From Clostridia bacterium (lineage in GTDB: Bacteria; Bacillota; Clostridia; Oscillospirales; Acutalibacteraceae): DNA of 64,000 nt. Shown here piece by piece: positions 24,508-57,016 of this stretch; position 1 is the first letter of the stretch; each line of letters starts with the position of its first letter. A model generated the notes under the pieces. That model worked only from the letters and a program-made list of their open reading frames with translations, did not search any database and had not been told where the DNA came from. The stretch covers positions 1,238-65,237 of the forward strand of contig CAAFXS010000014.1 in assembly GCA_900767025.1 (NCBI GenBank). Direction: 5' to 3'. The position numbers and the translations under genes were made by a program.

Positions 24508-26790
24508 TTATATACTGCGATAGGATATGCCGTAAATTTTTGCATTTACGCTGTTGGTTTTTGAGCCGATACGCATACAGGGTATAAGCAGGGTGGAATT
24601 TTTAATGCCATCTTTTTTAACCATATTATTATGGACAAATTTACCCTTTGCCTTTTTAGAGAAAAACCTGCCTGTTTTAACAGCGGTTTTAAGAGCTTCG
24701 GCAGTAATTATCAGATGAATTCTTTTGCCTGCCTGTGGAGTATAGTCAAACTCATACTCGTAGCCCTCGCGGGTAAAGCCGAGCTTGCCGTTATCGGTTA
24801 TACGCAAATCGTAGGGACTGCTGAAAAGTCCGTCGGACTCCATAATAATCTGACCCGGCTTAACCTCGTTAAACATAATATCAACAGTAAGCTCTGTGTT
24901 AAGCGGAAGATTATTTTGACCTGTAACAGCATAGCTGCTGCCGCCGTTAAGTGTAAGGACATTTGAAGAACAGGAGGCATTTTCTGTCTCAAGGGCAGAA
25001 AAATCAAATTTACCTGTTGAAGAAATTTTCTTTTCAAAGGGTGCACCGATTACTGCAGCGGCGTTGTCAACAGCCGCCGCACTATGCTTGCAGGTCATAC
25101 TGCCCCAGGTTTTTTCCGCCATTAAGGGTGCACTGTCCAAAAATCTGTCAAAGGTATCGCCTTCCGTAAGACCGCTTGCACGCTTGTCAATATTATCGTG
25201 CCAAATTGCATACACACCGCCGAGGACTCTTTTCTCACCGGCAGGAAGGTTTGAGTATCTTCCTCCCTTAAGCCTTACACGGCTTGGCTGAAATCCCTTG
25301 AAAACCTTGTTTTTATTGAGATAATCGGTATACATTCCACGCATGCGTGTGCCGTTAGGAACCATATAAAGATAATGGTCAATGGTATTGATAAGCTCAT
25401 AGCCCATATCATACATTTCCCTGCCGTCTGCCCACTGGCTTGACCACAGGTTAATCTGAACATTCTTAATCGCCTCGGGCACAATGGGAGTTGCCGGCTT
25501 ATCCTTAATCCAGGTAAGTCCGCCCCACATTCTGACCTTATTTGTTTTCTTGATATGAGGCACTATTTCATTGATAAACCTACGGTATGCACCGTAGTCA
25601 GTTAGGAATTCGTCTGCACCGATATGCACTGTTACATCACTGCCGAACACAGGATTTTCACCGCCGGTATAGTCATCATAAATTCTTTTGATGAAATCCA
25701 CTGCCTCCGGCTTGCTGACATCAATGTGGTCTGTCAAGGGTCTTTTGGGCATAAGAGGAGATGTTTTGTTTCTCACCATATATTCGGGGAAAACCTTTGT
25801 GAGTGAAAGGGCGTGTGCAGGCACATCAAGCTCCGGAACAATACGCACTCCCCTGTCCGATGCCCAGGCAATAAACTGACGGAATTCATCCTTTGTGTAG
25901 CTGTGGTCCTTGGCAGTTGCCGTTTCGCCCTTTTCATTTTTAACAGAGGATTCAAGACGGAATGCCTCGTAAGCGTCAAAGGTTGAGGCGTCGCCGTTAT
26001 GAGAATAGTTTTCAAGGAAAATATGGTTGTCGCTGAGATGAATCTGAAAATCGTTCATCTTGTACCAGGACATATATTCAACAATGCGCCTGAGCATATT
26101 AAGCGACATAGGCCTCCTGCCCACATCAAGCATAAAGCCCCTGACAGGATAACGGGGATAATCCCTCATTTCACCGAAAGGAAAGCCCTTTTGTGACAAA
26201 AGCTGTAAAATTGTTTTGCCAGCCCAAATAGCTCCCGCTTCAGCCGACACGGTTACACAGATTCCGTTGCTGTCGGCTTTTACGGCGTAGCCCTCGTCGC
26301 CAAGATACGCAACATCACTATTCAGTTCAAAGAATATATCGCCCTGCTGAACACTGTCTCTTTGCTCTACATTAAAGGTACGGCTAAGCACTGTTTCAGC
26401 CTCACTGGAAAAACGGGACACACAGCCCTCAAGCTCATTTGAGGAAAAGGCGATATTTTTAATATCCGATGATTTTACACTGCCTTTGCCCACAGGATAC
26501 CACTGTGCAGGCTCGGGAATGACCTGTGGCTTTGAGGAACAGGCCTTGTGTTCACCTTTAATATTCAAAGGCACATCTGACTCCGTCCTATTGCCGTTAC
26601 CGTCAGTACAGATAAATGACAGAGTTACAGTCATATCCGTAAGCGGTGTATGCACACAAAAATCATCATCAACTATCTGCGGAAAATCCGCACCTAAAAG
26701 CTCAACATTATATCCTTTTAATTCAGAAACAACTACTCTGCCGTTGCTGACTGTCAGCACAGGGGCAATTTTGTTAGCTTTGCCGGACAT
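24508..26790 (-). CDS. GH20 beta-N-acetylhexosaminidase, large multidomain, no signal peptide
   Basis: Catalytic region ...VRIVPELDVPAH... and ...VHIGADEF... (GH20 H-x-G-G-D-E-type motif). Additional N- and C-terminal beta-domains. Confidence 0.75.
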   Translation of the reverse strand: MSGKANKIAPVLTVSNGRVVVSELKGYNVELLGADFPQIVDDDFCVHTPLTDMTVTLSFICTDGNGNRTESDVPLNIKGEHKACSSKPQVIPEPAQWYPVGKGSVKSSDIKNIAFSSNELEGCVSRFSSEAETVLSRTFNVEQRDSVQQGDIFFELNSDVAYLGDEGYAVKADSNGICVTVSAEAGAIWAGKTILQLLSQKGFPFGEMRDYPRYPVRGFMLDVGRRPMSLNMLRRIVEYMSWYKMNDFQIHLSDNHIFLENYSHNGDASTFDAYEAFRLESSVKNEKGETATAKDHSYTKDEFRQFIAWASDRGVRIVPELDVPAHALSLTKVFPEYMVRNKTSPLMPKRPLTDHIDVSKPEAVDFIKRIYDDYTGGENPVFGSDVTVHIGADEFLTDYGAYRRFINEIVPHIKKTNKVRMWGGLTWIKDKPATPIVPEAIKNVQINLWSSQWADGREMYDMGYELINTIDHYLYMVPNGTRMRGMYTDYLNKNKVFKGFQPSRVRLKGGRYSNLPAGEKRVLGGVYAIWHDNIDKRASGLTEGDTFDRFLDSAPLMAEKTWGSMTCKHSAAAVDNAAAVIGAPFEKKISSTGKFDFSALETENASCSSNVLTLNGGSSYAVTGQNNLPLNTELTVDIMFNEVKPGQIIMESDGLFSSPYDLRITDNGKLGFTREGYEYEFDYTPQAGKRIHLIITAEALKTAVKTGRFFSKKAKGKFVHNNMVKKDGIKNSTLLIPCMRIGSKTNSVNAKIYGISYRSI

Positions 26791-33358: not shown

Positions 33359-33487
33359 ATTTACATCCTTTCCTTATAACTGTCTTTGAAGAGCTGAGAC
33401 CCTCTTCATTTTCATATTATGAATTTAAACAGAATTGTGCAAGCTGAGGTACAGAGAAAGGGTCTTTATATATTGCCTGTATAGCCT

Positions 33488-33541
33488 AATTTATGCATAA
33501 ATTTATGTGTATATTTATTCAGTTTTATGTATATTTATAAC
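33488..33541 (+). promoter_or_regulatory. AT-rich tandem imperfect palindromes, candidate ArgR (ARG-box) operator of the arg operon
   Basis: TTTATGCATAAATTTATG ... TGTATATTTATTCAG ... TTTTATGTATATTTATAA: repeated TATG-n-ATAAAT-type half-sites immediately upstream of the -35 box. Confidence 0.35.
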
Positions 33542-33558
33542 TATTTTCTCAAATAGTA

Positions 33559-33586
33559 TTGACAATAATATTAGAATGTATATAAT
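33559..33586 (+). promoter_or_regulatory. Sigma-A promoter of argC
   Basis: TTGACA (33559-33564), 16 nt, TATAAT (33581-33586), 38 nt upstream of the argC ATG. Confidence 0.6.
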
Positions 33587-33624
33587 AGATAAGAAATTAG
33601 AAAGATTGCGGAGAATGTATAAAA

Positions 33625-34566
33625 ATGACCAAGGTTTTTATTGACGGAAAGGACGGCACAACCGGCTTAAAAATATACAACAGGTTTGACGGCAGAGATG
33701 ACATCGAGCTTTTGCTCATTGACCCTGAAAAAAGGAAGGATGCCAAGGAGAGGGCAAGGCTTATACACGAAAGCGACATAACCTTTCTCTGTCTGCCGGA
33801 TGCGGCTTCAATTGAGGCGGTTGCACTTGCAGGTGACTGTGACACAAAAATAATTGACACCTCAACGGCACACAGAACTCTTGAGGGCTGGGCATACGGC
33901 TTTGCGGAATTAAGCACTGACCACCGACGAAAAATTGAAAGCAGTAGCAGAATTGCCGTACCCGGCTGTTATGCAACGGGATTTAACTCAATAGTTTATC
34001 CCCTAATAAAAAACGGATTTATCGGCAGTGACTATGACATTGTGTGCCATGCTTTAAGCGGTTACACCGGTGCAGGCAAAAAAGGTATTGCTCAATACGA
34101 GGACGAAAGCAGGGACAGGGAGCTTGACTCGCCAAGGCTTTACGCATTAACACAGGAGCATAAGCACCTTAAGGAAATGAAGGCTGTCAGCGGTCTTGAC
34201 AAATTCCCGATTTTTTCACCTATCATCTGCGATTATCCGAGAGGTATGGTTGTTACCGTTCCCCTTTACACAGACAGGATGAATAAAAAATATTCCAAAG
34301 AGGATATACAAAAAATGTTCAGCGAGCATTATGCAGGCAGTGACATAATCAAGGTCAGAGAGCTTGGATACACTGAAGGTATGATAGGCTGTAACAATTT
34401 TGAAGGCCGTGACGATTTGGAAATTGAAATCAACGGCAATGATGACAGAATACTCATTACCGCCCGCTTTGACAATCTGGGCAAGGGTGCCTCGGGTGCT
34501 GCTATACAGTGTATGAACATTGCTATGGGTATTGACGAAAAAACAGGACTTAATATAGGAGAATGA
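33625..34566 (+). CDS. argC: N-acetyl-gamma-glutamyl-phosphate reductase
   Basis: Short-form ArgC, 313 aa. Catalytic ...AVPGCYATG... Cys motif. Confidence 0.88.
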   Translation: MTKVFIDGKDGTTGLKIYNRFDGRDDIELLLIDPEKRKDAKERARLIHESDITFLCLPDAASIEAVALAGDCDTKIIDTSTAHRTLEGWAYGFAELSTDHRRKIESSSRIAVPGCYATGFNSIVYPLIKNGFIGSDYDIVCHALSGYTGAGKKGIAQYEDESRDRELDSPRLYALTQEHKHLKEMKAVSGLDKFPIFSPIICDYPRGMVVTVPLYTDRMNKKYSKEDIQKMFSEHYAGSDIIKVRELGYTEGMIGCNNFEGRDDLEIEINGNDDRILITARFDNLGKGASGAAIQCMNIAMGIDEKTGLNIGE

Positions 34567-34570
34567 AAAT

Positions 34571-35812
34571 ATGAAAAAAATTGACGGAGGAATTTGTGCG
34601 GCAAAGGGATTTAAGGCAAGCGGCACATATTGCGGAATTAAAAGGCCGGCCAACGATACACCTGATGCAAAGCACAAAAACGATATTTGCCTGTATGTAA
34701 GCGACAGGGCTTGCAACACTGCGGCGGTATACACTCAAAACAAGGTTAAGGGTGCGCCGATTGTTGTTACAAAGGCGAACCTTGAAAAAAGCGGCGGAAA
34801 AGCAATTGCAGTAATTGCAAATTCCAAAAACGCCAACACCTGCAATGCAGACGGCATTGAAAAGGCAAACAAAATGTGTGAGCTTGTGGCAAAGGAGCTT
34901 GGTATTCCGCAGGAGCAGGTTGTTGTGGCAAGCACCGGTGTTATCGGTCAGGTACTACCTATTGAGCCTATTGAAAAGGCTGTTCCCGTTCTTGCAAAGG
35001 AGCTTGATTACGGCAAAAACGAAGATGCCGCAACGGCTATTATGACCACCGACACGGTAAAAAAGGAATATGCCGTTGAATTTGAAATCAGCGGCAAGGT
35101 TTGTCATCTTGGCGGAATGGCAAAGGGCTCGGGTATGATTCACCCGAATATGGCAACAACACTTAATTTCATCACAACAGACTGTGCCATTAGCCAAAGC
35201 CTTTTGCAGAAGGCGCTGAGCGATATTGTTAAGGTTACATACAACTGCCTGTCAATCGACGGTGACACCTCAACAAATGATATGGTTTGTCTTATGGCTA
35301 ACGGCTTGGCAGGAAATGACGAAATAACCGCAGAAAACGATGAATACATAACATTTAAAAATGCACTTTATGAGGTTATGGCTAACCTTACCCGTATGCT
35401 TGCCAAGGACGGCGAGGGTGCAAGCAAGCTCCTTGAATGCATCTGCACAGGTGCAAAGGATTTGGACACCGCAATCACTGTTGCCAAAAGCGTTATCTGC
35501 TCTTCTCTTTTCAAGGCGGCTATGTTCGGCGAGGATGCTAACTGGGGCAGAGTTCTGTGCGCAATCGGCTATGCCGACGCTGATTTTGACATTAACAGGG
35601 TTAATGTTGATTTAAGGAGCGAAAACGGCGTTGTAGCTGTATGCAGAAACGGTGCAGGCGTTGAATTCAGCGAGGAAAAGGCAGGCAAGATTCTTTCTGC
35701 TGATGAAATTTACATTGACATTAACTTAAATGACGGCTCTGTTGAAGCAACCGCATGGGGTTGTGATTTGACCTATGATTATGTAAAAATTAACGGAGAT
35801 TACAGAACCTGA
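34571..35812 (+). CDS. argJ: Bifunctional glutamate N-acetyltransferase / amino-acid acetyltransferase
   Basis: ArgJ family, 413 aa. Self-cleavage region ...HPNMATTLNFITTD.... Confidence 0.88.
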   Translation: MKKIDGGICAAKGFKASGTYCGIKRPANDTPDAKHKNDICLYVSDRACNTAAVYTQNKVKGAPIVVTKANLEKSGGKAIAVIANSKNANTCNADGIEKANKMCELVAKELGIPQEQVVVASTGVIGQVLPIEPIEKAVPVLAKELDYGKNEDAATAIMTTDTVKKEYAVEFEISGKVCHLGGMAKGSGMIHPNMATTLNFITTDCAISQSLLQKALSDIVKVTYNCLSIDGDTSTNDMVCLMANGLAGNDEITAENDEYITFKNALYEVMANLTRMLAKDGEGASKLLECICTGAKDLDTAITVAKSVICSSLFKAAMFGEDANWGRVLCAIGYADADFDINRVNVDLRSENGVVAVCRNGAGVEFSEEKAGKILSADEIYIDINLNDGSVEATAWGCDLTYDYVKINGDYRT

Positions 35813-35839
35813 TTAATCAGGGTTTGTATAGGCGAAATA

Positions 35840-35898
35840 CCGTAGGGGCGACCATTGGTCGCCCGAATATAATCGGGCTTGCAGTGCAAGCCCCTACG
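35840..35898 (+). repeat. REP/MITE-like structured repeat, copy 2 (variant second hairpin), intergenic between argJ and argB
   Basis: CCGTAGGGGCGACcattgGTCGCCCG-aatataat-CGGGCTTGCAgTGCAAGCCC-CTACG. Same outer stem and first hairpin as copies 1 and 3. The second hairpin differs in sequence but remains palindromic. Confidence 0.7.
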
Positions 35899-35959
35899 AA
35901 AGTTTGTTACATTAACACACAAAAAAATACCAATTAATATAAAGCTTCGGAGAAATGCT

Positions 35960-36817
35960 ATGGATATTAACAATGCACAAAAGGCGGAGATAATTGCTCA
36001 CGCTCTGCCACACATACAGAAATACAGGAAGAAAATTGTTGTTGTAAAATACGGCGGAAACGCAATGATTAACCAGGAGCTTAAGGAAGCCGTTATGCGT
36101 GACTTGGTGCTTTTAACAACAGTAGGCATCAAGGTGGTTCTTGTTCACGGCGGAGGCCCCGACATCAGCAGAGTTCTGAGCAAAATGAACATTGAAAGCA
36201 GGTTTGAAAGCGGTCTGCGTGTTACCGACAGGGACACTGTTGAGGTTGTTCAGATGGTGCTTGCAGGCAAGGTTAACAAGGATTTGGTTTGCCAGATAGG
36301 TAATTTGGGCGGTCACGCCATCGGTCTTTCGGGTATGGACGGAAATATGATTGAGTGCGTGCCACTTGATGATACCCACGGCTATGTGGGCAGAATTACA
36401 AATGTTAACACCGATGTTATTGAGGAGGCGCTGGAGCACAGCTTTATCCCTGTTGTTTCAACCATCGGATACGATAAGGAAAGCAACTGCTACAACATTA
36501 ATGCCGACACGGTTGCCGCCGCAATAGCAGGTGCGCTCAACGCAGAGGCTCTTGTTTCAATGACTGACATTGTGGGACTTTTAAGAGACAAGGACGATGA
36601 GTCAACGCTTATTCACAAGGTTTATATTAGTGACACACCTGCCCTTATTTCCGAGGGAATAATCACCGGTGGTATGATACCTAAAATTGATTCAATGACA
36701 CAGGCAATCCGTGAGGGTGTTAAAAAAGCATTTATTATTGACGGACGGGTACCCCACTCTATTCTTATGGAGCTTCTTACCGATGAAGGTATGGGTACAA
36801 TGTTCAGAAGCAGGTGA
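35960..36817 (+). CDS. argB: Acetylglutamate kinase
   Basis: ATG at 35960 with GGAGAAA RBS (the ORF-track start at 35879 would span the REP element). Amino-acid kinase family ...VVVKYGGNAM... 285 aa. Confidence 0.88.
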   Translation: MDINNAQKAEIIAHALPHIQKYRKKIVVVKYGGNAMINQELKEAVMRDLVLLTTVGIKVVLVHGGGPDISRVLSKMNIESRFESGLRVTDRDTVEVVQMVLAGKVNKDLVCQIGNLGGHAIGLSGMDGNMIECVPLDDTHGYVGRITNVNTDVIEEALEHSFIPVVSTIGYDKESNCYNINADTVAAAIAGALNAEALVSMTDIVGLLRDKDDESTLIHKVYISDTPALISEGIITGGMIPKIDSMTQAIREGVKKAFIIDGRVPHSILMELLTDEGMGTMFRSR

Positions 36818-36821
36818 TAAA

Positions 36822-37982
36822 ATGAACACAAAAGAACTTGACATTCAATACATTGCCCATTCCTACGGCAGATTTGATGTGGCGCTTGCAAAGGGCAAGG
36901 GCTCAACGCTCATTGATGAGGAGGGCAAGGAATACATAGATTTCGGCTCCGGAATCGGCGTTACCGCCTTCGGCATTTGTGACGAGGAATGGAAAAAGGC
37001 GGTGAAGGCTCAGCTTGATTTGGTACAACACACAAGCAACCTTTACTACACCTCCCCCTGTGCAAGACTGGCTGAAATGCTTTGCGAAAAATCGGGAATG
37101 AAAAAGGTTTTCTTTGCAAACAGCGGTGCAGAGGCAAACGAGGGTGCTATTAAATTTGCAAGGAAATACAGCTTTGACAAATACGGCGAGGGCAGGAGCA
37201 CAATAATAACACTCGTTAACTCCTTTCACGGCAGGACGATAACTACCCTTTCCGCCACGGGTCAGGACAGCTTTCACACCGTATTCGGACCTTTTACAGA
37301 GGGCTTTAAATACTGCCCTGCTAATGACATTGATACACTTAACAAAATGGCAACTGACGATGTTTGCGCAATTATGTTTGAGTGTGTTCAGGGTGAAGGC
37401 GGAGTTAACAACCTTGATTATGACTTTGTAAAGGCAATCGAAAGGCTTGCAAAGGAAAAGGACATACTGATGATTGTTGACGAGGTGCAGACAGGAAACG
37501 GCAGAACAGGCAAATATTTTGCCTACGAGCATTTTGATATTAAGCCGGACATTGTTTCCACCGCAAAGGGACTTGCAGGCGGTTTACCAATGGGTGCAGT
37601 GTTTTTCGGTGAAAAGCTCAAGGACACGGTGACCCCGGGCTCCCACGGTTCAACCTTCGGCGGAAATCCAATCTGTGCGGCAGGTGCGGTTTCAATAGTA
37701 TCAAGAATTGATGATAAATTTCTTGATGCAGTTAATGAAAAAAGCAAATACATAAAGGATTTTCTGAACAATGTCAGCGGTGTTAAATCCATATCGGGTA
37801 TGGGACTGATGCTTGGCATTGAAACTGAAAAGGACGCAAAGGAAATTGCAGGCGAATGCTTAAAAAACGGCTTGCTTGTACTTACGGCAAAAACAAAAAT
37901 TAGGCTCCTTCCGGCACTTAACATAAGCTACGAGGAGCTTGAAAAGGGACTTAATATCTTAAAGGAGGCAATTGAAAAATGA
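36822..37982 (+). CDS. argD: Acetylornithine aminotransferase
   Basis: ATG at 36822, 5 nt after the argB stop. Class-III PLP aminotransferase; ...DEVQTGNGRTGK... and ...STAKGLAGG... (PLP lysine). Confidence 0.88.
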   Translation: MNTKELDIQYIAHSYGRFDVALAKGKGSTLIDEEGKEYIDFGSGIGVTAFGICDEEWKKAVKAQLDLVQHTSNLYYTSPCARLAEMLCEKSGMKKVFFANSGAEANEGAIKFARKYSFDKYGEGRSTIITLVNSFHGRTITTLSATGQDSFHTVFGPFTEGFKYCPANDIDTLNKMATDDVCAIMFECVQGEGGVNNLDYDFVKAIERLAKEKDILMIVDEVQTGNGRTGKYFAYEHFDIKPDIVSTAKGLAGGLPMGAVFFGEKLKDTVTPGSHGSTFGGNPICAAGAVSIVSRIDDKFLDAVNEKSKYIKDFLNNVSGVKSISGMGLMLGIETEKDAKEIAGECLKNGLLVLTAKTKIRLLPALNISYEELEKGLNILKEAIEK

Positions 37983-38881
37983 AGCATTTACTTAAATTAC
38001 AGGATTTGGATAAGGCTGACATACTCGACATTCTCAACCTTGCGGACCAGCTTAAATACGAAACAAAGCACGGTATTGAGCATCATCACCTTAAGGGCAA
38101 AACCCTTGGTATGATTTTTCAAAAAAGCTCAACAAGAACAAGGGTAAGCTTTGAAACAGGAATGTATCAGCTTGGCGGCCAGGCTCTTTTCCTTTCAAAC
38201 AGGGATTTGCAGATTGGCAGAGGCGAGCCTGTTCAGGACACCGCAAGGGTGCTTTCACGCTATCTTGACGGTATTATGATTAGAACCTTTGAGCAAAAAG
38301 AGGTTGAGGATTTGGCTGAATACGGCTCAATTCCCATTATCAACGGTCTTACCGACTACTGTCATCCTTGCCAGGTGCTTGCAGATTTAATGACAATTAA
38401 GGAATACAAAAAAAGCTTTGACGGACTTAAGCTCTGCTTTATCGGTGACGGCAACAATATGGCAAACAGCCTTATTGTTGGTGCAATTAAAATGGGTATG
38501 AGCTGTGCAATCGCCTGTCCCGACGGCTACAAGCCCGATGCGGAAATTATGAAATGGGCAGAGGAAAACGGCAACTTTATGTGCAGTGACAACATTCTTG
38601 AATGTGCAAAGGACGCTGATGTTCTTTATACAGACGTTTGGGCATCAATGGGTCAGGAAGAGGAAAAGGCTGAAAGAGAAAAGATTTTCAAAGACTATCA
38701 GATTAACGATGAGGTTATGGCTGTGGCTAAAGCAGACGCTATGGTGCTTCACTGCCTGCCTGCTCACAGAGAAGAGGAAATCACCGCAAAGGTATTTGAA
38801 GAACACGCAGACGAAATTTTTGACGAGGCTGAAAACAGACTCCATGCACAGAAGGCAGTCCTTGTTAAGCTGTTAGGATAA
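37979..38881 (+). CDS. argF: Ornithine carbamoyltransferase
   Basis: STRTRVSFE carbamoyl-phosphate-binding motif, HCLP motif, 300 aa. Overlaps argD by 4 nt. Confidence 0.9.
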   Translation: MKHLLKLQDLDKADILDILNLADQLKYETKHGIEHHHLKGKTLGMIFQKSSTRTRVSFETGMYQLGGQALFLSNRDLQIGRGEPVQDTARVLSRYLDGIMIRTFEQKEVEDLAEYGSIPIINGLTDYCHPCQVLADLMTIKEYKKSFDGLKLCFIGDGNNMANSLIVGAIKMGMSCAIACPDGYKPDAEIMKWAEENGNFMCSDNILECAKDADVLYTDVWASMGQEEEKAEREKIFKDYQINDEVMAVAKADAMVLHCLPAHREEEITAKVFEEHADEIFDEAENRLHAQKAVLVKLLG

Positions 38882-38886
38882 TTATT

Positions 38887-39972
38887 ATGAGCGATAACAA
38901 AATTTACATTTGCCTTGCCGACGGCAGTGTGTTTGAGGGCAAAGCCTTCGGTGCAAAGGGCGAGGTTTTAGGCGAGCTTGTGTTCACAACGGGTATGGGC
39001 GGTTATATCGAAACCCTTACCGACCCAAGCTATTTCGGTCAAATAGTAATGCAGACCTTTCCCCTTATCGGCAACTACGGCTTTATTGATGATGATAAGG
39101 AATGTGAAAAAAGCGCCGTTTCGGCTTACATTGTCCGTGAATACTGCGGTGAGCCGTCAAATTTCAGGTGTGACAGAACTCTTGAAGCATACCTGAAGGC
39201 CAACGGAATTGTAGGCGTTTATGATGTTGACACAAGGGAAATCACAAAAATAATCCGTGAATACGGTGTTATGAATGCGCTTATCACCGATAATCCCGAT
39301 AATGCGGATTTAGAAAAAATCAAGGCTTATCAGGTTAAGGATGCGGTTAAATCCGTTTCCGCCGTTAAGCCGTCATTAAGTGCATCCGATGAGCACAGGT
39401 TCAACGTTGTTCTTATTGACTACGGCACAAAGAAAAATATTGTAAGAGAGCTTAACAAAAGGGGCTGTAATGTTGCCGTTGTGCCCTACAACACAAAGGC
39501 AGAGGATATTTTATCCCTTAATCCCGACGGTATTATGCTTTCAAACGGACCCGGCGACCCCCAGGAAAACACAAATGAAATTGAAGAACTGAAAAAGCTT
39601 GCAGGCAAAAAGCCCATATTTGCAATTTGCCTGGGTCATCAGCTTTTGGCACTTTCCCAAGGAGCGGAAACCGCAAAACTGAAATACGGCCACAGAGGTG
39701 TTAACCAGCCTGTTAAAAATCTTGAAAACGGCAGAACCTTTATTTCATCGCAAAATCACGGCTATGCAGTTGTTAACGAAAGCGTTGAAGACACAGGCGG
39801 TAAAATCAGCTTTGTTAATGCAAACGACGGTACCTGTGAGGGAATTGACTATCCCCTGCTAAATGCATTTTCCGTTCAGTTTCACCCGGAGGCTTGCTCA
39901 GGTCCCAAGGACACTAATTTTATTTTTGACAAATTCATTGATATGATGGGAGGTAAAAGCAATGCCTCTTGA
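38887..39972 (+). CDS. carA: Carbamoyl-phosphate synthase small (glutaminase) subunit
   Basis: CarA N-domain plus class-I GATase (...ICLGHQLL..., catalytic Cys). 361 aa. Overlaps the carB start by 11 nt. Confidence 0.9.
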   Translation: MSDNKIYICLADGSVFEGKAFGAKGEVLGELVFTTGMGGYIETLTDPSYFGQIVMQTFPLIGNYGFIDDDKECEKSAVSAYIVREYCGEPSNFRCDRTLEAYLKANGIVGVYDVDTREITKIIREYGVMNALITDNPDNADLEKIKAYQVKDAVKSVSAVKPSLSASDEHRFNVVLIDYGTKKNIVRELNKRGCNVAVVPYNTKAEDILSLNPDGIMLSNGPGDPQENTNEIEELKKLAGKKPIFAICLGHQLLALSQGAETAKLKYGHRGVNQPVKNLENGRTFISSQNHGYAVVNESVEDTGGKISFVNANDGTCEGIDYPLLNAFSVQFHPEACSGPKDTNFIFDKFIDMMGGKSNAS

Positions 39973-42900
39973 TAAAAGCATAAAAAAGGTTCTTGTTATC
40001 GGTTCGGGTCCCATCGTTATCGGTCAGGCGGCGGAATTTGACTACGCAGGCGCACAGGCCTGCCGTGTGCTTAAGGATGAGGGCATCGAGGTTGTTCTCG
40101 TTAACTCCAACCCTGCCACAATAATGACGGACAAGGCTCTTGCCGACCATATTTATCTTGAACCGCTGACGGAAGAAACGGTTAAAAGAATTATTGAAAA
40201 AGAAAGACCCGATTCCATTCTCTGCGGTCTCGGAGGACAGACAGGTCTTACCATAGGTATGCAGCTTGCAAAGGACGGTTATCTTGAACAGATGGGCGTT
40301 CGTTTGCTTGGTACAAACGCCGAAGCCATTGACAAGGCAGAGGACAGGCAGATGTTTAGGGACACCATGGTTAAAATCAATCAGCCTGTTGTTCCAAGCG
40401 ACATTGCGCAGACCGTTGAACACGCAAAGGAAATTGCCAAGGAAATCGGCTACCCTGTTATCATCCGTCCCGCCTTTACATTAGGCGGAGCAGGCGGCGG
40501 TGTTGCAAATGATGAAAAGAAGCTTGAAATAATAGCCAAGAACGGCTTAATGCTCTCCCCTATTACTCAGGTGCTTGTTGAGCGTTACATTGCAGGCTGG
40601 AAGGAAATTGAATTTGAGGTAATGCGTGACGGTGCAGGCAATGTTATTGCCGTATGCTCAATGGAAAACTTTGACCCTGTTGGAGTTCACACCGGTGACA
40701 GCATTGTTATTGCTCCTGCCGTTACTCTTGCGGACAGGGAATATCAAATGCTCCGTTCCGCCTCACTTGACATTATCACCGAGCTTGGTATTGAGGGTGG
40801 CTGCAACTGCCAGTTTGCCCTTAATCCCGAAAGCTTTGAATACTCGGTTATTGAGGTTAATCCAAGAGTTTCAAGGTCGTCTGCTCTGGCGTCAAAGGCA
40901 ACGGGTTACCCCATTGCAAAGGTTACTACAAAAATCGCACTTGGATACACTCTTGATGAAATCAAAAATGATATTACGGGCAAAACCTGTGCCTGCTTTG
41001 AGCCTGCACTTGACTATGTTGTTGTTAAGCTGCCAAAATGGCCCTTTGACAAATTTGTCAATGCCTCAAGAAAATTAGGCACACAGATGAAGGCAACAGG
41101 CGAGGTTATGAGCATTGCACCGAGCTTTGAAATGGCGGTTATGAAAGCGGTTAGAGGTGCTGAAATCGGACTTGACACCCTTAACTGCCCTGTCCTTGAG
41201 GGCACAGAACCGTTGGAAAGGCTTTCACATCAGGACGATTTAAGGATGTTTGCCGTGTTCAGAGCCCTAAAAAACGGCATTTCTATTGACGAAATCCACC
41301 GCATTACAATGATTGACGAGTGGTTTTTGGCAAAGCTGAAAAACCTTGCGGATTACGAAAAGGAAATTGATGGCAAGCCTTTAAGTGAGGAAATGTACCT
41401 TAAAGGCAAAAAGCTTGGCTACACCGACAAAGCACTTGAAAAAATCAGCGGCGGCTCCCTTTTGTATCACAGGGATTGCGTTTACAAAATGGTTGACACC
41501 TGCGGTGCTGAATTCAAGGCGGAAACACCTTATTTTTACTCCACCTATGACAATCACTGCGAGTCAAGAGAGCTTGAAAAAAGCGGTAAGGAAAAAATTA
41601 TCGTGTTAGGCTCAGGTCCTATCCGCATCGGTCAGGGTATTGAATTTGACTACTCCTGCGTTCACTGTGTATGGACCTTAAAGGAGCTTGGCTACGAGGT
41701 TATACTCATTAACAACAACCCCGAAACCGTTTCCACCGATTTTGACACAGGCGACAGGCTTTATTTTGAGCCACTTACCGAAGAAGATGTTATGAACATT
41801 ATCAAGGCGGAAAATCCCCTTGGCGTTGTGGTTGCCTTCGGCGGACAGACGGCTATTAAGCTGACAAAATTCCTTGATGACAACGGCATAACAATCTTCG
41901 GCACAAGTGCAAAATCCATTGACCTTGCGGAAGACAGGGAAAAGTTTGACGCACTCCTTGAAAAATTCAATATTTTCAGGCCAAAGGGCGAAAGCGTTAT
42001 GACCCTTAACGGTGCTTTAGCATCTGCCGAAAGGCTTGGCTATCCTGTTCTTCTTCGCCCCTCCTATGTTATCGGCGGTCAGAATATGACTATTGCTTAC
42101 ACCGACGACGATGTTAAGCAGTATATGGAAATTATTCTTTCCCAGGGCATTACTAATCCCGTGCTTGTGGACAAGTATATGATGGGCACGGAGCTTGAGG
42201 TTGACTGCATCAGCGACGGTGAGGATGTGCTTATCCCGGGTATAATGGAGCATATCGAAAGAGCAGGCGTTCACTCCGGCGACTCCATTGCAGTATATCC
42301 GCCCTATAACCTTAACGATATGATGCTTGACAAGGTTTGCAGGGTTTCCGAAAATCTTGCTTTATCCCTTGGCACAAAGGGACTTGTTAACATTCAGTAT
42401 CTTATCTACCAAAACGAGCTGTTTGTTATTGAGGTTAATCCCAGAGCATCAAGGACCATACCTTACATAAGCAAGGTTACAGGGGTTCCCATGGTTGAGC
42501 TTGCGTCAAAGATAATGGTGGGTGCGTCCCTTAAAGACCTTGGCTACGGAACAGGACTTTATTCAACTCCCCCATACTACGCCGTTAAGGTGCCTGTGTT
42601 CAGCTTTGAAAAGCTAAATGATGTTAACTCCAAGCTTGGTCCCGAAATGAAATCCACAGGCGAGGTTTTGGGCGTAGGCAAAAATCTTGTTGAGGCTTTA
42701 TACAAGGGCCTTGTGTCCGCAGGCTTTAAAACCGATTTTCACCGAAAGGACAACCACGGCGTACTTATCACCGTTACCAAGCAGGACAGATTTGAAATAG
42801 TTAATCTTGCCAAAAAGCTTGATGATTTGGGTGCAAGGATATGGGCAACTCCCGAAACGGCAAAGGCTATTGAAAGCCTTGGAATTGAGGTATCGGTGGT

Positions 42901-43993
42901 TAACAAGCTTCGTGAGGACAATTCAATTATGGATTTGGTTGAAAGCGGTGTGCTTGATTACATTGTATACACAGGCAAAAGCGACAAAAAATCAATTGCC
43001 GACTATATCAAGCTCCACAACAGAGCAAATCAGCTTGGCATTGCAGTTATAACATCCCTTGACACAGCAAATGCCGTGGCGGACATAATTGCATCTCGCT
43101 ACAAGCAGACCAACACAGAGCTTGTGGATATTAACAATATGAGAAAAGAAAAGGGTATCCTTAAATTCTCAAAAATGCAGGGCACCGGCGACGATTATAT
43201 TTTCTTTAACAATCAGTGCGGAATTATTACCTGCCCCGAAAGCTTTGCCATTGAATTTACCGACAGGCACAGAGGTATCGGCGGTGACGGTATTATTCTC
43301 ATTGAAGAAAGCGAAGCTGCCGACGCTAAAATGCGTATATTTAACATTGACGGCTCCGAGGGTAAAATGGCAGGCAACTCCATTAGATGCGTGGGCAAAT
43401 ACCTTTATGACAACGGTATGGTTAACTCAAAGGAAATGGATATTGAAACCGCATCGGGCATCAGGCATCTGTCACTGTTTACAAGAAACGGCAAGGTATC
43501 CTCCGTTACCGTTGATATGGGCAAGGCACAGCTGAAGCCAAGCCGTATTCCCGTTATTGCACAGGGTGAAAGGGTTATTGACTACCCTGTTCAAATCGGT
43601 GGCATTGAATACAAAATCAATTCCTGCAGTATCGGTAATCCCCACTGTGTTGTTTTTGTTGACAATGTTGACAAAATTAACCTTGGGGAAATAGGTCCTC
43701 AATTTGAAACCGCAGACATTTTCCCTGAAAGAATTAACACGGAATTTGTGAGAGTAGTTAATTCAAACACCCTTAAAATGAGGGTTTGGGAAAGAGGTAA
43801 CGGCGAAACACCTGCCTGCGGAACAGGCGCCTGCGCCGCAGTTATCTGTGCAGTTGAAAAAGGACTTTGCCCCAAGGGCGAAAGCATCACCGTAAAGGTA
43901 AAAGGCGGAGATTTAATTGTAAATTACTCCGACGACGGTGTTAAGCTCACAGGCGACTGCAATCTTGTTTACAAAGGCGAAATTGAATATTAA
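39962..43993 (+). CDS. carB: Carbamoyl-phosphate synthase large subunit (residues ~1-1065) fused in frame to a diaminopimelate-epimerase (DapF)-like domain (residues ~1069-1343)
   Basis: Two ATP-grasp halves and an MGS-like domain ending ...ASRYKQTNTELVDINN. This continues without a stop into MRKEKGILKFSKMQGTGDDYIFF...GNSIRC...SIGNPHCVVFV...ACGTGACAA (DapF fold motifs). There is no RBS before the junction Met. Confidence 0.8.
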   Translation: MPLDKSIKKVLVIGSGPIVIGQAAEFDYAGAQACRVLKDEGIEVVLVNSNPATIMTDKALADHIYLEPLTEETVKRIIEKERPDSILCGLGGQTGLTIGMQLAKDGYLEQMGVRLLGTNAEAIDKAEDRQMFRDTMVKINQPVVPSDIAQTVEHAKEIAKEIGYPVIIRPAFTLGGAGGGVANDEKKLEIIAKNGLMLSPITQVLVERYIAGWKEIEFEVMRDGAGNVIAVCSMENFDPVGVHTGDSIVIAPAVTLADREYQMLRSASLDIITELGIEGGCNCQFALNPESFEYSVIEVNPRVSRSSALASKATGYPIAKVTTKIALGYTLDEIKNDITGKTCACFEPALDYVVVKLPKWPFDKFVNASRKLGTQMKATGEVMSIAPSFEMAVMKAVRGAEIGLDTLNCPVLEGTEPLERLSHQDDLRMFAVFRALKNGISIDEIHRITMIDEWFLAKLKNLADYEKEIDGKPLSEEMYLKGKKLGYTDKALEKISGGSLLYHRDCVYKMVDTCGAEFKAETPYFYSTYDNHCESRELEKSGKEKIIVLGSGPIRIGQGIEFDYSCVHCVWTLKELGYEVILINNNPETVSTDFDTGDRLYFEPLTEEDVMNIIKAENPLGVVVAFGGQTAIKLTKFLDDNGITIFGTSAKSIDLAEDREKFDALLEKFNIFRPKGESVMTLNGALASAERLGYPVLLRPSYVIGGQNMTIAYTDDDVKQYMEIILSQGITNPVLVDKYMMGTELEVDCISDGEDVLIPGIMEHIERAGVHSGDSIAVYPPYNLNDMMLDKVCRVSENLALSLGTKGLVNIQYLIYQNELFVIEVNPRASRTIPYISKVTGVPMVELASKIMVGASLKDLGYGTGLYSTPPYYAVKVPVFSFEKLNDVNSKLGPEMKSTGEVLGVGKNLVEALYKGLVSAGFKTDFHRKDNHGVLITVTKQDRFEIVNLAKKLDDLGARIWATPETAKAIESLGIEVSVVNKLREDNSIMDLVESGVLDYIVYTGKSDKKSIADYIKLHNRANQLGIAVITSLDTANAVADIIASRYKQTNTELVDINNMRKEKGILKFSKMQGTGDDYIFFNNQCGIITCPESFAIEFTDRHRGIGGDGIILIEESEAADAKMRIFNIDGSEGKMAGNSIRCVGKYLYDNGMVNSKEMDIETASGIRHLSLFTRNGKVSSVTVDMGKAQLKPSRIPVIAQGERVIDYPVQIGGIEYKINSCSIGNPHCVVFVDNVDKINLGEIGPQFETADIFPERINTEFVRVVNSNTLKMRVWERGNGETPACGTGACAAVICAVEKGLCPKGESITVKVKGGDLIVNYSDDGVKLTGDCNLVYKGEIEY

Positions 43994-44036
43994 AAAACAG
44001 GACTTGAGTTTGTTTGAACTCAAGTCCTGTTATATT
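43992..44036. terminator. Bidirectional Rho-independent terminator
   Basis: ACAGGACTTGAGTT-tgttt-GAACTCAAGTCCTGT (15-bp stem) flanked by A-run and T-run. Lies between convergent carB-dapF and BMP genes. Confidence 0.75.
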
Positions 44037-52847: not shown

Positions 52848-55496
52848 TTAGAAATTTACTGTTTTTGTTTCGCCGGGGTTAAAGGAAAGAGTTTGCTCTG
52901 AACCGTTATAGGTCACTTTTATTTCCTGCTTAATCTTTGAGGTTATAGTTGCCTGAACAGTGCCCTGTGACATATCCCATTTAAGACTGTCAACAGTTGC
53001 TCGTGTTCTGGCGTTAATGCCTGTAATCTCACCCTTTTCAAGTCCCTTTGGCAGAGCCGGAAGGAGTCCGATTTCACCCTCATTTGAATACACAAGAGCC
53101 TCGTTGATAATTCCGAGATAGCCGATTGCAAAGTCGGTACAATAGCCGCTTCCCCTGTCGTAATCGTGGTTTGTCATAAGTGAATTATAGTAAATCCTAT
53201 GATTCATCAGATTTGCCAAAGCGTCGGTAAGGCTTTCGCTATCCTTAAGCCTTGCGGCAATAAGTGAACGGTGAACAAGTGCGTGTGACGCCTCGTTTTC
53301 GCTTTCACGGTTGGCTATTGCCTGAAGGCAGGCATTTTTCAGCTCCTCATTATTCTGTGTTTCAAACAGGGGCCAAACGCCGTAAAGGTGGCTTAAGTGC
53401 CTGTGCTCGTTATTTTCCTCAAAGGCAGTAGTTGCCCACTCCTTCAGTGCGCCTGTTTCGTCATAGAGATAAGGTGGAAGCTTATCCATAAGTGCCTGCC
53501 ACTGTGATGTGTCGGCACTGCTGTCAAGCTCCTTCATAACTGAAATCAGCATTTCAAGATTATTTCTGCAGGCAGAAATATCAATAGCGCAGTTGGCATC
53601 CGACGGGCTTGGGTAATTTGACGGATTATTCTCCGGCGAATAGCTTGGCAAAATACAATAGGTTTCATCCTCTGCTAATTCTGCTTTGCCCTGCTCGTAA
53701 TGAATACCGCCATTAGCGTCGGTATAATATTCGGGTGTAAGAAGCTGATTCCAATAATTTGCAGACTTTGTCAAAAGCGGAAGAAGTACATTTTCAAGGA
53801 GCTTGAGCTTGCCTTGACCTTCAATTTGTTTGACATCGGCATCTGTCAAATCAAGGATATCCTTAACTGCCTGTAGGTCGAATTCGTCACTGAGAGGAAT
53901 ATCAATATTTCCGTAGGTTTGATATGTTTCATAAAGGGGCTGAAGCATCCAGGAGGTGCCTGCGTTCCAATACCTAAAGGGATAAGGATAGCAGGTTTCG
54001 GTAATTACCGCTTTATCGCCGTCGGTATTAACAGGTGCCTGAATGGCATTTGTAAAGCCGTGGGTTGCATATGCATTTTCCTGCCAGTCGGGAAGCTGAC
54101 GGAGTATAAAATAAGTATAGCCTATGGGGCTTGAGCTGATATTACCTGTGTTCATTGAAGATGTTTGCAGGTTAACATTTGCATCCATAGTATACTTACT
54201 GCCCCATTTTGTATTCCACTCGCCTGTCCACATACCGTAAAGACGGCTTGTTGAATAACCCGAACAGCAAAGATAAGCATATCTGCCTGAATAGTAGGCT
54301 CTTTGTGCAAGAGCAGGATTGATTTCGTCCTTGCCTTTCTGCTCCTTCAGGAGAGCTTCGTTTGACTTTTCACTGTTTTCAAAGCTAACCGTAACTGCAT
54401 CAAACTGTGGCTGATATATTGCAAGATGTGAATTAAGGGCAGAGTTGTAATCAAAATCTCCGTTAATCGTGTACTTATCCGCCACTGCCTTTGCGTCACT
54501 GTAAAGACCGGTTACAAGGTCATAGTCAGTTTGACCTTCAAAATCGGCAAAGGCGCTCATATCATATGTTCTGCCGCTGATTGTTATGAGATAAACCGCA
54601 TCGGCGTCGGTAATTTTAACACCGCCGTTTTCACCGCAGAAAATATTTTCCTCCGTATTTTTATCGAGGATTGCTTTTTCCCTGCTTCCGCCAACATTAA
54701 CTACATATGTAACGGTTGCGTAGCCTCCGTTTTTCAGCTCACTGTTTTCGTAGTCGGGGTAATGAGCCGTAAGTGCAAGCATATCGCCGTTTTCGGAAAC
54801 AAGCTTTTTATACTTAATATTAACCTCGTCACTGCTGCCGAAATTAGCAAGAGTTGAAAGGTCATCATATGAAAGTGTTACATTTACCTTAGCACCCTCG
54901 GATGAAGATGCAAGCTGTGTAATAACTGCTCCGTCTGACATTGAGGTAAAGGATTTCCTTTCCCAAGTGCCGTTTTTATCGGTAAAGCGTACACCCACCT
55001 GTGAGGTTTCGTAATCGGTATACCTTACATAGTCCTTTGCGTTATTCTTTTCAAAATCAAGCCTGAGCTGACCGCCCGGATGAAAACGGTAAACATCATC
55101 ATAGCTGGCATTGTCAACAATATCCTCACCCTTGACGATATTCTGTTTAACCGTTTCAAGCTCGTCAAAGGTTTCGGGGCAATAACGCACATTTGGGTTA
55201 GGCATAATAAAATGCATATACTGATAGATAAATGTGTCACTGTAGGGAGAACCGCTTTCAACAAAGCCCTGAAGACCGTTGCCGGAAACCATACCCTGAC
55301 GCCATTTTTTAGTGCTGTTGGTTTTATTATTTTTTAGCTCCGTATACTTTGTGCTGTAAGAAACCTTTGACTCATCGGCAAAGAGTCCGTCTATTTTTGC
55401 ACTGTCGGTTTTAATTGCAGTGCAGGAGGCCATTGACCACACCGACACCGCACAAAGCACAAGGCACAAGCCTTTCTTAATCTTATTTTTAATCAT
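52848..55496 (-). CDS. Secreted lipoprotein glycoside hydrolase, GH95-like (alpha-L-fucosidase-type six-hairpin enzyme). Family assignment tentative
   Basis: Lipoprotein signal MIKNKIKKGLCLVLCAVSVWSMASC. The N-terminal ...GMVSGNGLQGFVESG... resembles the GH95 N-domain GNGRLGAMVFG motif. ...DANVNLQTSSMNTG... resembles GH95 catalytic-region motifs. 882 aa. Confidence 0.5.
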   Translation of the reverse strand: MIKNKIKKGLCLVLCAVSVWSMASCTAIKTDSAKIDGLFADESKVSYSTKYTELKNNKTNSTKKWRQGMVSGNGLQGFVESGSPYSDTFIYQYMHFIMPNPNVRYCPETFDELETVKQNIVKGEDIVDNASYDDVYRFHPGGQLRLDFEKNNAKDYVRYTDYETSQVGVRFTDKNGTWERKSFTSMSDGAVITQLASSSEGAKVNVTLSYDDLSTLANFGSSDEVNIKYKKLVSENGDMLALTAHYPDYENSELKNGGYATVTYVVNVGGSREKAILDKNTEENIFCGENGGVKITDADAVYLITISGRTYDMSAFADFEGQTDYDLVTGLYSDAKAVADKYTINGDFDYNSALNSHLAIYQPQFDAVTVSFENSEKSNEALLKEQKGKDEINPALAQRAYYSGRYAYLCCSGYSTSRLYGMWTGEWNTKWGSKYTMDANVNLQTSSMNTGNISSSPIGYTYFILRQLPDWQENAYATHGFTNAIQAPVNTDGDKAVITETCYPYPFRYWNAGTSWMLQPLYETYQTYGNIDIPLSDEFDLQAVKDILDLTDADVKQIEGQGKLKLLENVLLPLLTKSANYWNQLLTPEYYTDANGGIHYEQGKAELAEDETYCILPSYSPENNPSNYPSPSDANCAIDISACRNNLEMLISVMKELDSSADTSQWQALMDKLPPYLYDETGALKEWATTAFEENNEHRHLSHLYGVWPLFETQNNEELKNACLQAIANRESENEASHALVHRSLIAARLKDSESLTDALANLMNHRIYYNSLMTNHDYDRGSGYCTDFAIGYLGIINEALVYSNEGEIGLLPALPKGLEKGEITGINARTRATVDSLKWDMSQGTVQATITSKIKQEIKVTYNGSEQTLSFNPGETKTVNF

Positions 55497-55660
55497 ATAA
55501 ATTTCACCTCAATGATATTCATTTACTGATAGTCCTAAACTTTTTAATAAGTGTTTTCATAACAGGTAATATACCCGTCAAAGGTGCCGGCAAAGAGCCT
55601 GCCCTCTGCAAGAGCAATTTCCCCCAATAGATAACAGACATATTGTATTAGTTTAATAAT

Positions 55661-57016
55661 TTACGGTCTGTAAGCGCCGGTACGGCAGACCTCTATTTTG
55701 TCAATATACGGCTCTTTTCTGCATTCCTCAATAACCAGCTTAAGACTGTCGGTAACAACCGGCTTATTGAAAATTGCAATTTTTGAAAAGCCCACAACCG
55801 TGCCGTTATAAACACAGATGTCATTTGCATAAATTTTGAATTTTTCAATTCTCTGTGATTTTGTGGTATCCTCGGAAATACGGATACGGTCAACGGACTG
55901 CTTGTTAAAATTAATATTAATCACCTTTTTATCCGGTGACATTTCATATGTACTGTCAATAACGCAATCGTCCTCTTTTTTCAGCCACTGACCCATTTGA
56001 TTAAGTCGGCGGACATCTCTTTTTGAGAACTGACCCTTCCTGTTAGGCGGAATATTTAAAATCAAAAGGCTGTTACCACCCACAGAGCCGTAGTAAATGC
56101 TCATAAGCCTGTGCAATGATTTAAGGGTTAAGGTCTGCATCGGGTGATGGAACCAGCCAAGCCTTATGGAAACATCAACCTCTGCCGGATACCACATAAA
56201 TGAATTGTAGTTGGCAAGAAATTCTCTTGAGCCCATATCCTTAATCATAATATCCTGGCACTGTTTTTGGAATTTTTTAAGGTTGTCATCGGTTTGGCAT
56301 CCCTCTGCAATATTCTGCTTCTCGTACTGAAATTTGGGAACAACATTCCATTCGCTTTCCCTTGCTTTACCGCTTTCGTTACCCACCCAGCGAACATCGG
56401 GAGCACAGCCTGACATAACAATATTAGGCTGAAGCTTAAGGGCGGTTGACCAAATTCGCTCAAAATCATACTGCTGTTTAGGCTTGCCGTCTGCGTCGGA
56501 ACCGCAGGCACCGTCAAGCCACAGCATAAAGATTTCACCGTAATTTGTTAAAAGCTCGGTTAACTGTTCAATGTAAAAATTATTGTATGCTGGTGTTCCG
56601 TAAAGCTCACTGTTTCTGTCCCAAGGGGAAAGGTAAACACCGAACTTTAATCCGTATTTTCTGCAGGAGTCGGAAAGCTCACGCACCACATCGCCTTTTC
56701 CGTTTTTATAAGGACTGTTCCTTATGCAGTGCTCGGTGGTTTTTGTCTGCCACAGGCAAAAGCCGTCGTGATGCTTACAGGTTAACACAACACCCTTCAT
56801 ACCTGCTGATTTTATTGCCCTGCACCACTGGTCTGTATCCTGATTAGAAGGATTGAACACAGAGGTTGATTCCTTACCGCTGCCCCATTCCTTGCCCGTA
56901 AATGTGTTAACTGTGTAATGCACAAAGGCGTAAAACTTCATATCCTGAACTATCAGCTGACGCTCATTGGGCACTATTGAGGTGTAAAGGTCAATTCTGT
57001 CCTGACTTGTTTCCAT
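55661..57016 (-). CDS. GH29 alpha-L-fucosidase
   Basis: ...VVLTCKHHDGFCLWQT... (GH29 HHDGF motif) and ...LWLDGA.... 451 aa. AAGGAGAAAGCT RBS. Confidence 0.82.
   Translation of the reverse strand: METSQDRIDLYTSIVPNERQLIVQDMKFYAFVHYTVNTFTGKEWGSGKESTSVFNPSNQDTDQWCRAIKSAGMKGVVLTCKHHDGFCLWQTKTTEHCIRNSPYKNGKGDVVRELSDSCRKYGLKFGVYLSPWDRNSELYGTPAYNNFYIEQLTELLTNYGEIFMLWLDGACGSDADGKPKQQYDFERIWSTALKLQPNIVMSGCAPDVRWVGNESGKARESEWNVVPKFQYEKQNIAEGCQTDDNLKKFQKQCQDIMIKDMGSREFLANYNSFMWYPAEVDVSIRLGWFHHPMQTLTLKSLHRLMSIYYGSVGGNSLLILNIPPNRKGQFSKRDVRRLNQMGQWLKKEDDCVIDSTYEMSPDKKVININFNKQSVDRIRISEDTTKSQRIEKFKIYANDICVYNGTVVGFSKIAIFNKPVVTDSLKLVIEECRKEPYIDKIEVCRTGAYRP

Follow-up and report, generated by a model that had tools for sequence, protein, structure and literature searches.

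A carB-dapF gene fusion of Oscillospirales-type Clostridia in which the diaminopimelate epimerase-derived domain has recurrently lost catalytic Cys73

Dead domains fused to carbamoyl-phosphate synthetases (CPSases) include the glutaminase-like domain of CPS1 and the dihydroorotase (DHOase)-like domain of yeast Ura2. In the proline racemase family, members that lack one cysteine of the catalytic pair became trans-3-hydroxy-L-proline dehydratases, which carry Thr in place of Cys and have a defined new substrate. Diaminopimelate epimerase (DapF) has the same superfold. It works by a two-base mechanism in which the N-domain thiolate takes the alpha-proton of LL-diaminopimelate (LL-DAP) and the C-domain thiol re-protonates the opposite face (PMC9854792). 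Cys-to-Ser mutants of DapF-type racemases and homologues have less than 0.1% of their activity left (PMC8225329). DapF of E. coli also binds and activates another enzyme, RppH, so the DapF fold can act as a protein regulator (PMC6061791). A DapF-derived domain joined to the CPSase large subunit (CarB) is described here from a Clostridia bacterium. It is encoded in a 64,000 bp stretch, referred to as the window, of contig CAAFXS010000014.1 (assembly GCA_900767025.1, positions 1,238 to 65,237).

The fusion is encoded by one ATG-started open reading frame (ORF) of 1343 aa at 39962..43993 on the plus strand, with no internal stop. This bears out the original prediction of a 1343-codon carB-dapF ORF, as models of both CarB and DapF matched it. 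The four motifs that had been quoted from it were all found in its translation. Pfam predicted two CPSase_L_D1/D2 pairs, CPSase_L_D3 and MGS (aa 945-1031; 42794-43054, plus strand), followed by two DAP_epimerase repeats. The two preATP-grasp/ATP-grasp pairs, the oligomerisation domain and the MGS-like allosteric domain make up a complete CarB architecture. The CarB body, containing two ATP-grasp synthetase units, the oligomerisation domain and the MGS-like domain, occupies aa 1-1047 (39962..43102, plus strand). Over these residues the NCBIfam CarB equivalog NF003671 scored 1439 bits (cut-off 599), and TIGR01369 (CarB) scored 1403 bits (cut-off 1027). The DapF equivalog TIGR00652 scored 268.6 bits over aa 1068-1342 of the whole ORF (cut-off 114.65) and 273.7 bits with the DapF domain alone as query. 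The bifunctional DapF/glutamate racemase model NF038284 gave 106.6-111.5 bits against a cut-off of 350.

The CarB part was collinear with E. coli CarB (1bxr, E = 2.8e-302). As in E. coli CarB (PDB 1bxr/1jdb), collinearity runs across aa 1-1039 and an overlapping carA lies upstream. The allosteric phosphate pocket is mostly intact, with S948 replaced by T and K954 by R, while T974, T977 and K993 are kept. Unlike E. coli CarB, the window protein has approximately 280 additional C-terminal residues and has Tyr and Gly at the nucleotide-site positions N1015 and T1017, and its gene is part of an arg operon. The CarB part is a fully intact large subunit of an arginine-operon carbamoyl-phosphate synthetase.

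The DapF-derived domain (aa 1065-1343; 43154..43990, plus strand) has the full two-lobe fold according to TIGR00652, alignment to 2otn and Foldseek. It aligned to the B. anthracis DapF 2otn with E = 2.5e-66. With solved DapFs (such as PDB 2otn, 9mro and 2gke; two PF01678 repeats) it has in common the two-lobe fold (TM 0.92), 39-40% identity, Cys217, His159, Glu208 and the dimer Tyr. Unlike them, it lacks Cys73 (H. influenzae numbering), falls outside the PROSITE signature, is never free-standing and is attached to CarB without a linker. In HMMER alignments to three solved DapFs the window reads SEGKM-A-GNSIRC, compared to SEGKS-C-GNGLRC in 2otn and SEPEM-C-GNGIRC in 9mro. The window has MAGNSIRC where canonical DapF has xCGNGxRC, and catalytic Cys73 is replaced by Ala1137 (GCA; 43370..43372, plus strand). 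The GCA codon is at least two substitutions away from a TGY Cys codon. The second catalytic Cys, equivalent to Cys217, is kept as Cys1286 (TGC; 43817..43819, plus strand) within ACGTG. The PROSITE DapF signature is N-x-[DN]-[GS]-[SENGFT]-x(4)-C-[GI]-N-[GA]-x-R (PMC8225329), from which the window sequence NIDGSEGKM-A-GN-S-IR departs at C and at [GA]. The GNSIRC motif of the original prediction is present, but the DapF part is not a complete, canonical epimerase, as the catalytic Cys just before the motif is Ala.

Related loci were collected by scanning GTDB, with each species represented by a single genome. At least 80 species-level genomes were found to share the fusion, giving 81 fusions with the window. 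One frame crosses the junction in all 80 related genomes, and no stop codon and ribosome binding site were found between carB and dapF in any of them, which upholds the fusion. Wherever the contig permits, the frame in the relatives is open for approximately 1340 aa with carA upstream, at identities down to 47%. The hosts are Oscillospiraceae, Ruminococcaceae, Christensenellaceae and Acutalibacter. Cultured carriers are Ruminococcus sp. FC2018, Neglectibacter caecimuris, Ruminococcaceae bacterium AM07-15 and an Oscillospiraceae isolate. When an MGS-junction-DapF query was searched against 5.8 billion proteins, the best 120 matches all spanned the junction, at identities between 87% and 56%. 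Judging from this spread, the fusion arose long ago and has become fixed throughout Oscillospirales-type Clostridia. Three Oscillospirales-type fusions, L065 (CAYSDV010000007.1), L067 (WQUW01000014.1) and L041 (CAVBUH010000041.1), were on contigs binned as Treponema sp. or Selenomonadaceae, and one of the Treponema-binned contigs comes from a termite gut. Either horizontal transfer or mis-binning may explain these. The L065 and L067 fusions are also without Cys73.

The CarB C-terminal tail and junction (aa 1048-1064, ...YKQTNTELVDINNMRKEK) lie at 43103..43153 on the plus strand, with the junction sequence GATATTAACAATATGAGAAAAG at 43127-43148. The junction (...SLDTANALADIIASRYxQxNTELVDInxMRxE...) ranks among the best-conserved segments of the protein, its T-E-L and R being invariant in 44 sequences. 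Its length is the same in 81/81 fusions. At the junction, 56 loci have an ATG codon and 3 have TTG, while the remaining 22 have a Leu codon that does not initiate translation (CTG, CTC, CTT, CTA or TTA). No Shine-Dalgarno motif was found upstream of this codon in the 81 loci. The N-termini of free DapFs align 4-5 residues beyond the junction Met. The Met itself aligns with what we take to be a native residue of the CarB tail, the tail of E. coli CarB serving as the ruler. The idea that the junction Met is the former dapF start was not borne out, as its position belongs to the CarB tail and DapF starts later. Separate translation of DapF from the junction ATG was ruled out by the Leu codons, the lack of a Shine-Dalgarno motif and the position of the Met within the CarB tail. 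Since 22 loci have non-start Leu codons and none has a Shine-Dalgarno motif, the DapF part is made only as a piece of CarB. By these signs the product is a single polypeptide, in which the CarB tail runs without a linker or possible internal restart into the DapF-derived domain.

Neighbor-joining trees were constructed from the DapF domain and from the CarB part. In the DapF tree all fused domains and two adjacent free copies grouped together in a single clade, which is split into two branches. Cys73 is found in 0/52 species of Clade II, the branch to which the window belongs. Clade I (29 species) has mostly MCGNG, with scattered losses of Cys73 to Gly or Phe. The CarB-part tree gave the same split, and the other Cys-less sequences lay at several separate spots inside the Cys-retaining clade. 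In total Cys73 is missing in 58/81 fusions and Cys217 in 1/81. Across these sequences the recurrent loss of Cys73 is not in doubt. The single fusion that has neither catalytic Cys residue (TAGNA, ASGTG) is L035 of Oscillibacter sp. UMGS638 (10379-11230), which may be a further step to a purely non-catalytic domain. In 121 close fused sequences position 73 was Ala in 112, Gly in 7, Ser in 1, a gap in 1 and Cys in 0. From 1.84 billion proteins the 150 nearest representatives at 50% identity were taken, and 128 of them had both Cys residues. Those of the 150 without Cys73 were mostly longer than free DapF or were fragments, which fits pieces of fusions. With most of the nearest representatives keeping both residues, the loss appears specific to the fusion. 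One apparent standalone Cys-less DapF, P0125, was rejected as a 5'-truncated call which starts inside the CarB tail ('MDINALR...').

Ser1140 (43379-43381) is the equivalent of Gly76, three residues after the lost Cys, a position which is Gly or Ala in canonical DapF. In the Cys-less relatives this position is Ser in 54, Cys in 26, Ala in 25, Asn in 5, Val in 4 and Gly in 3. Position 76 lies on the same helix, within its first turn, and the 'AGNC' variants could in principle carry a relocated thiol. The complete list of changes fixed specifically in Clade II is R1061, N1084, S1094, E1115 and A1137. A substitute catalytic residue fixed in Clade II was rejected, as position 76 varies and the fixed changes offer no obvious base.

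The rest of the active site was retained. Free DapFs have 55 alignment columns with conservation of at least 95%, and of these only Cys73 is lost in Clade II (0% kept). The other columns are kept at 85-100%, except Asn11 (67%), Ser1223 (71%) and Asp1109 (77%), which are mildly relaxed. The contacts described for DAP in the H. influenzae complex include Asn64, Asn157, Asn190 and Arg209 to the distal carboxylate, Glu208 to the distal amine, Gly74, Asn75, Gly218 and Ser219 to the reactive carboxylate and Asn11 to the reactive alpha-amino group (PMC8225329). The residues N64, G74, N75, N157, N190, E208, R209 and G218 are conserved at 97-100% across the fusions. Of the contacts N11, N64, G74, N75, N157, N190, E208, R209, G218 and S/T219, all but N11 are found in the window. 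The Asn11 equivalent in the window is Asp1077 (43190-43192), and it is Asn in 64/81 fusions. Asp at this position was seen in 15/81 species and in 68/121 close database matches, including the nearest relatives of the window. From its position, Asp1077 would form a salt bridge to the substrate ammonium. In PddB, a DapF homologue with a new substrate, the distal-site residues are replaced (PMC8225329). The fusions keep the residues that PddB replaced, and the pocket is therefore still DAP-shaped. Altered substrate specificity was rejected, as the distal-carboxylate residues replaced in PddB-type enzymes are all kept.

The DapF/CarB divergence ratio was 1.39 in Clade II, 1.47 in Cys-retaining Clade I pairs and 1.45 in the Clade I fusions that lost Cys73. 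By this measure constraint on the fused DapF domain is not relaxed by the loss of Cys73. A decaying pseudo-domain was rejected by the column conservation together with these ratios. The combination found is that expected of a pseudoenzyme, with a catalytic residue lost and the fold still under purifying selection. The dimer-interface aromatic is Tyr or Phe throughout the fusions. Its equivalent in E. coli DapF, Tyr268, is a dimer-interface residue (PMC6061791).

Structure prediction was carried out with AlphaFold2 (AF2). The model of aa 934-1343 had a mean predicted local distance difference test (pLDDT) score of 87.4, with confident domains and a linker below 50. In the larger model of aa 640-1343 the linker scored approximately 82-87, with a predicted template modelling (pTM) score of 0.79. 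Compared by Foldseek with the ligand-bound DapF 9mro, the AF2 DapF part had a target-normalised TM score of 0.92 and a root-mean-square deviation of 1.9 A. The Foldseek neighbours include one-Cys 3-hydroxyproline dehydratases and the single-base PhzF. The models suggest a defined position for the DapF module, with the conserved tail packed against the CarB body.

The two clades differ in genomic context. Genes of the arg pathway lie directly upstream of the fusion in 26/36 evaluable Clade II loci compared to 0/23 in Clade I (Fisher p approximately 9e-9, with loci counted without correction for phylogeny). At five Clade II loci (L009, L028, L040, L044 and L054) the gene immediately upstream of carB::dapF is argD or argF, without an intervening carA. 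Given this gene order, those genomes must either encode the glutaminase subunit at another site or lack it. In the closed genome of the cultured Acutalibacter muris, carA is followed by a Cys-retaining carB::dapF of 1360 aa, and after two small genes come a free canonical dapF and pyrG. The fusion in A. muris sits in a pyrimidine and not an arginine context. The interval between the fusion and dapF (L082, CP021422.1, 8085-9948) holds a lipoprotein-like gene of 459 aa without a Pfam match and a gene of the LOR family. In an Acutalibacter metagenome-assembled genome and in N. caecimuris the fusion is followed, after 30 bp to 1.8 kb, by a free canonical dapF. A fusion and a free canonical dapF can therefore coexist, as they do in these three genomes. 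With the N. caecimuris free DapF as query, matches of at least 70% identity were only to Acutalibacter and Neglectibacter-type proteins, which are free DapFs of the Clade I type. A different DapF fusion family was represented by P0182 (687 aa) and P0207 (742 aa). In these, approximately 400 aa without a Pfam match precede a C-terminal canonical DapF with both Cys residues.

The best-supported reading, which is held tentatively, is that the fused domain may be a DAP-pocket-bearing, non-epimerase regulatory or structural module, i.e. a pseudoenzyme on CarB. It is favored because selection still fully constrains the pocket, Cys217 and the fold, and because the attachment appears rigid. The genes carB and dapF would first have been fused end to end, and the fused copy would then have gained or kept a role independent of epimerisation. 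Cys73 would afterwards have disappeared several times over, and without exception in the arg-operon clade. Without the Cys73 thiolate to abstract the alpha-proton of LL-DAP, canonical two-thiol epimerisation would be impossible. The module would be a ligand-binding non-epimerase held rigidly against the allosteric domain of CarB. CPSase activity or assembly could be tuned when the module binds DAP, or a ligand very similar to it, and goes through the open-to-closed motion of DapF, and/or by DapF-type dimerisation. Ligand binding, loss of epimerase activity and a regulatory effect on CPSase are what we infer for the module. The original prediction had proposed that the fusion could couple arginine/pyrimidine and cell-wall precursor synthesis. 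Coupling to meso-DAP synthesis by two active enzymes is unsupported in this genome, as Cys73 is gone throughout the clade.

The E. coli DapF-RppH complex (PDB 6d13; PMC6061791) is alike in that the DapF fold is a protein partner which alters another enzyme, apart from its own catalysis. It is unlike the fusion in that E. coli DapF is free and catalytically competent with a Nudix hydrolase as partner, whereas in the window the partner is CarB, the bond is covalent and the dyad is broken. A narrower form of the module reading, possible but doubtful, is that of a sensor. The Cys73-less module would bind meso- or LL-DAP without turnover, and lobe closure and/or dimerisation beside the allosteric domain of CarB would tune carbamoyl-phosphate supply. 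Carbamoyl phosphate for arginine synthesis would thereby be matched to the pool of cell-wall and lysine precursors.

Several points weigh against a non-epimerase module. Why DAP should control a CPSase of the arginine pathway is not physiologically obvious. The neighbor-joining trees are without support values and the exact number of independent Cys73 losses is uncertain. The AF2 output consists of confidence scores without predicted aligned error or coordinates, and docking of DapF on CarB is suggestive only. A second DapF homologue was found neither in the 64-kb window nor at distances of up to 10 kb from the fusion at the 52 Clade II loci, so the fused domain might be the sole DapF homologue. 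Cys217, His159 and Glu208 are kept near-absolutely, beyond the needs of pure binding, which hints at residual or altered chemistry.

The last two points would also suit a true bifunctional enzyme, in which the fused domain is still the diaminopimelate epimerase of the cell and uses a non-canonical proton donor/acceptor on the L-face. The base could be water in the Ala cavity acting via His159/Glu208, or the Ser, Cys or Asn at the Gly76 position. The score over the DapF equivalog cut-off, the conservation of the whole DAP pocket and the undiminished constraint are consistent with this, as is the presence of Ser, Cys or Asn at position 76 in approximately 70% of close relatives, compared to Gly/Ala in canonical DapF. 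However, Cys73 is missing in 100% of Clade II, and the Cys-to-Ser mutants cited above are nearly inactive. Position 76 is Ala, Val or Gly in approximately one quarter of the relatives, so there is no universal substitute base. The same Cys was lost repeatedly and independently, once to Phe (L064), which argues that epimerase activity is dispensable in the fusions. A bifunctional enzyme is considered unlikely.

A neofunctionalised one-base enzyme is a less probable explanation. Here Cys217 alone would carry out a new reaction (elimination, dehydration or isomerisation) on a DAP-like substrate with a D-centre. The asymmetry between the two Cys losses, the full conservation of the pocket and the one-Cys 3-hydroxyproline dehydratases and single-base PhzF among the structural neighbours all point in this direction. 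The trans-3-hydroxy-L-proline dehydratases (PDB 6r76, 4k7g) have the same superfold, and have likewise lost one Cys of the pair and kept the pocket. They differ in that the fusions have Ala or Gly in place of the Cys, with no new substrate evident. Ala brings no new functional group, the operon holds arg and car genes only, with no evident substrate or pathway, and the distal residues for DAP specificity are unchanged, whereas PddB replaced them.

Also improbable is a purely structural module, in which the DapF fold would be a ligand-free dimerisation or scaffold domain that stabilises CPSase oligomers. The conserved Tyr/Phe at the dimer interface and a linker of constant length that comes out ordered in the AF2 model of aa 640-1343 would fit such a role. 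The dead domains of CPS1 and Ura2 are a precedent, as both are enzyme-derived, are minus a catalytic residue and are kept in the CPSase chain. They have other folds at other positions and are eukaryotic, and none is derived from an enzyme of the lysine or peptidoglycan pathway. A scaffold would need neither 97-100% conservation of eight ligand contacts nor a Cys217 buried between the lobes. Finally, a sequencing or assembly artefact with spurious read-through after loss of the carB stop codon, which the original prediction had allowed for and which has prior plausibility on its side, was rejected as extremely improbable given the identical protein on two independent contigs, the continuous frame in 80 other species down to 47% identity, the conservation of the junction and the presence of the fusion in the closed A. 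muris genome.

The fusion closes an arg-car operon on the plus strand. The identical 1343-aa protein is present on an independent ENA contig (L001) with the same order, argC-argJ-argB-argD-argF-carA-carB::dapF. Pfam analysis of this contig bore out the argCJBDF-carA-carB operon of the original prediction. The arg block spans 33625..38881 and comprises argC (33625-34566, Semialdhyde_dh), argJ (34571-35812, ArgJ), argB (35960-36817, AA_kinase), argD (36783-37982, Aminotran_3) and argF (37979-38881, OTCace). It is followed by carA (38887..39972; CPSase_sm_chain and GATase), which encodes the small glutaminase subunit of CPSase and overlaps the start of carB by 11 nt. A putative promoter-like site, TTGACA-17-TATAAT, was read from the sequence upstream of argC (33561..33589, plus strand). 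It is preceded by AT-rich imperfect repeats (TATGCATAAATTTATG..., TTTTATGTATATTTATAA; 33470-33560) which are ARG box-like in appearance. No riboswitch or T-box was predicted across the 64-kb window, and hence none ahead of the operon. A riboswitch or T-box as a pointer to the controlling metabolite was therefore dropped.

A hairpin with a perfect 15-bp stem was identified by terminator scan right after the stop codon (43996..44031, no strand assigned). It lies between convergent genes and is probably a bidirectional terminator which closes the operon. The convergent gene beyond it encodes a lipoprotein. A cluster of host-glycan hydrolases (GH20, GH95, GH29 fucosidase and GH38 mannosidase) was found at 24508-26790, 52848-57016 and 58996-62301 in the window. 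Its gene content suggests a mucin or N-glycan-foraging gut Clostridium as the host.

Full-text searches of open-access literature found no published account of a CarB-DapF fusion or of a DapF pseudoenzyme. The original prediction that the fusion is undescribed stands as regards this literature. The architecture is nevertheless abundant in public data, where it goes by inconsistent names, and is not confined to this genome. Fusions are labelled 'diaminopimelate epimerase, partial' by NCBI and 'carbamoyl-phosphate synthase large subunit' by JGI. The free 280-aa DapF of A. muris (P0370) is also labelled 'carbamoyl-phosphate synthase large subunit' by JGI. The fusion makes annotation errors spread. 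Metabolic reconstructions of Oscillospirales may wrongly credit or miss the DapF step, which would affect predictions of lysine/DAP auxotrophy for gut communities.

The fusion is a covalent union of a textbook allosteric enzyme, CPSase, and an antibiotic target, DapF. If the module reading is true, it would be a natural case of the conversion of an enzyme to a regulatory domain, by fusion followed by repeated loss of one member of the catalytic dyad. If the sensor form of it is true, the domain would be the first DapF-derived small-molecule sensor and a new allosteric input to a textbook enzyme. It would be an unrecognised link from arginine and carbamoyl-phosphate to peptidoglycan and lysine precursors in abundant gut Clostridia.

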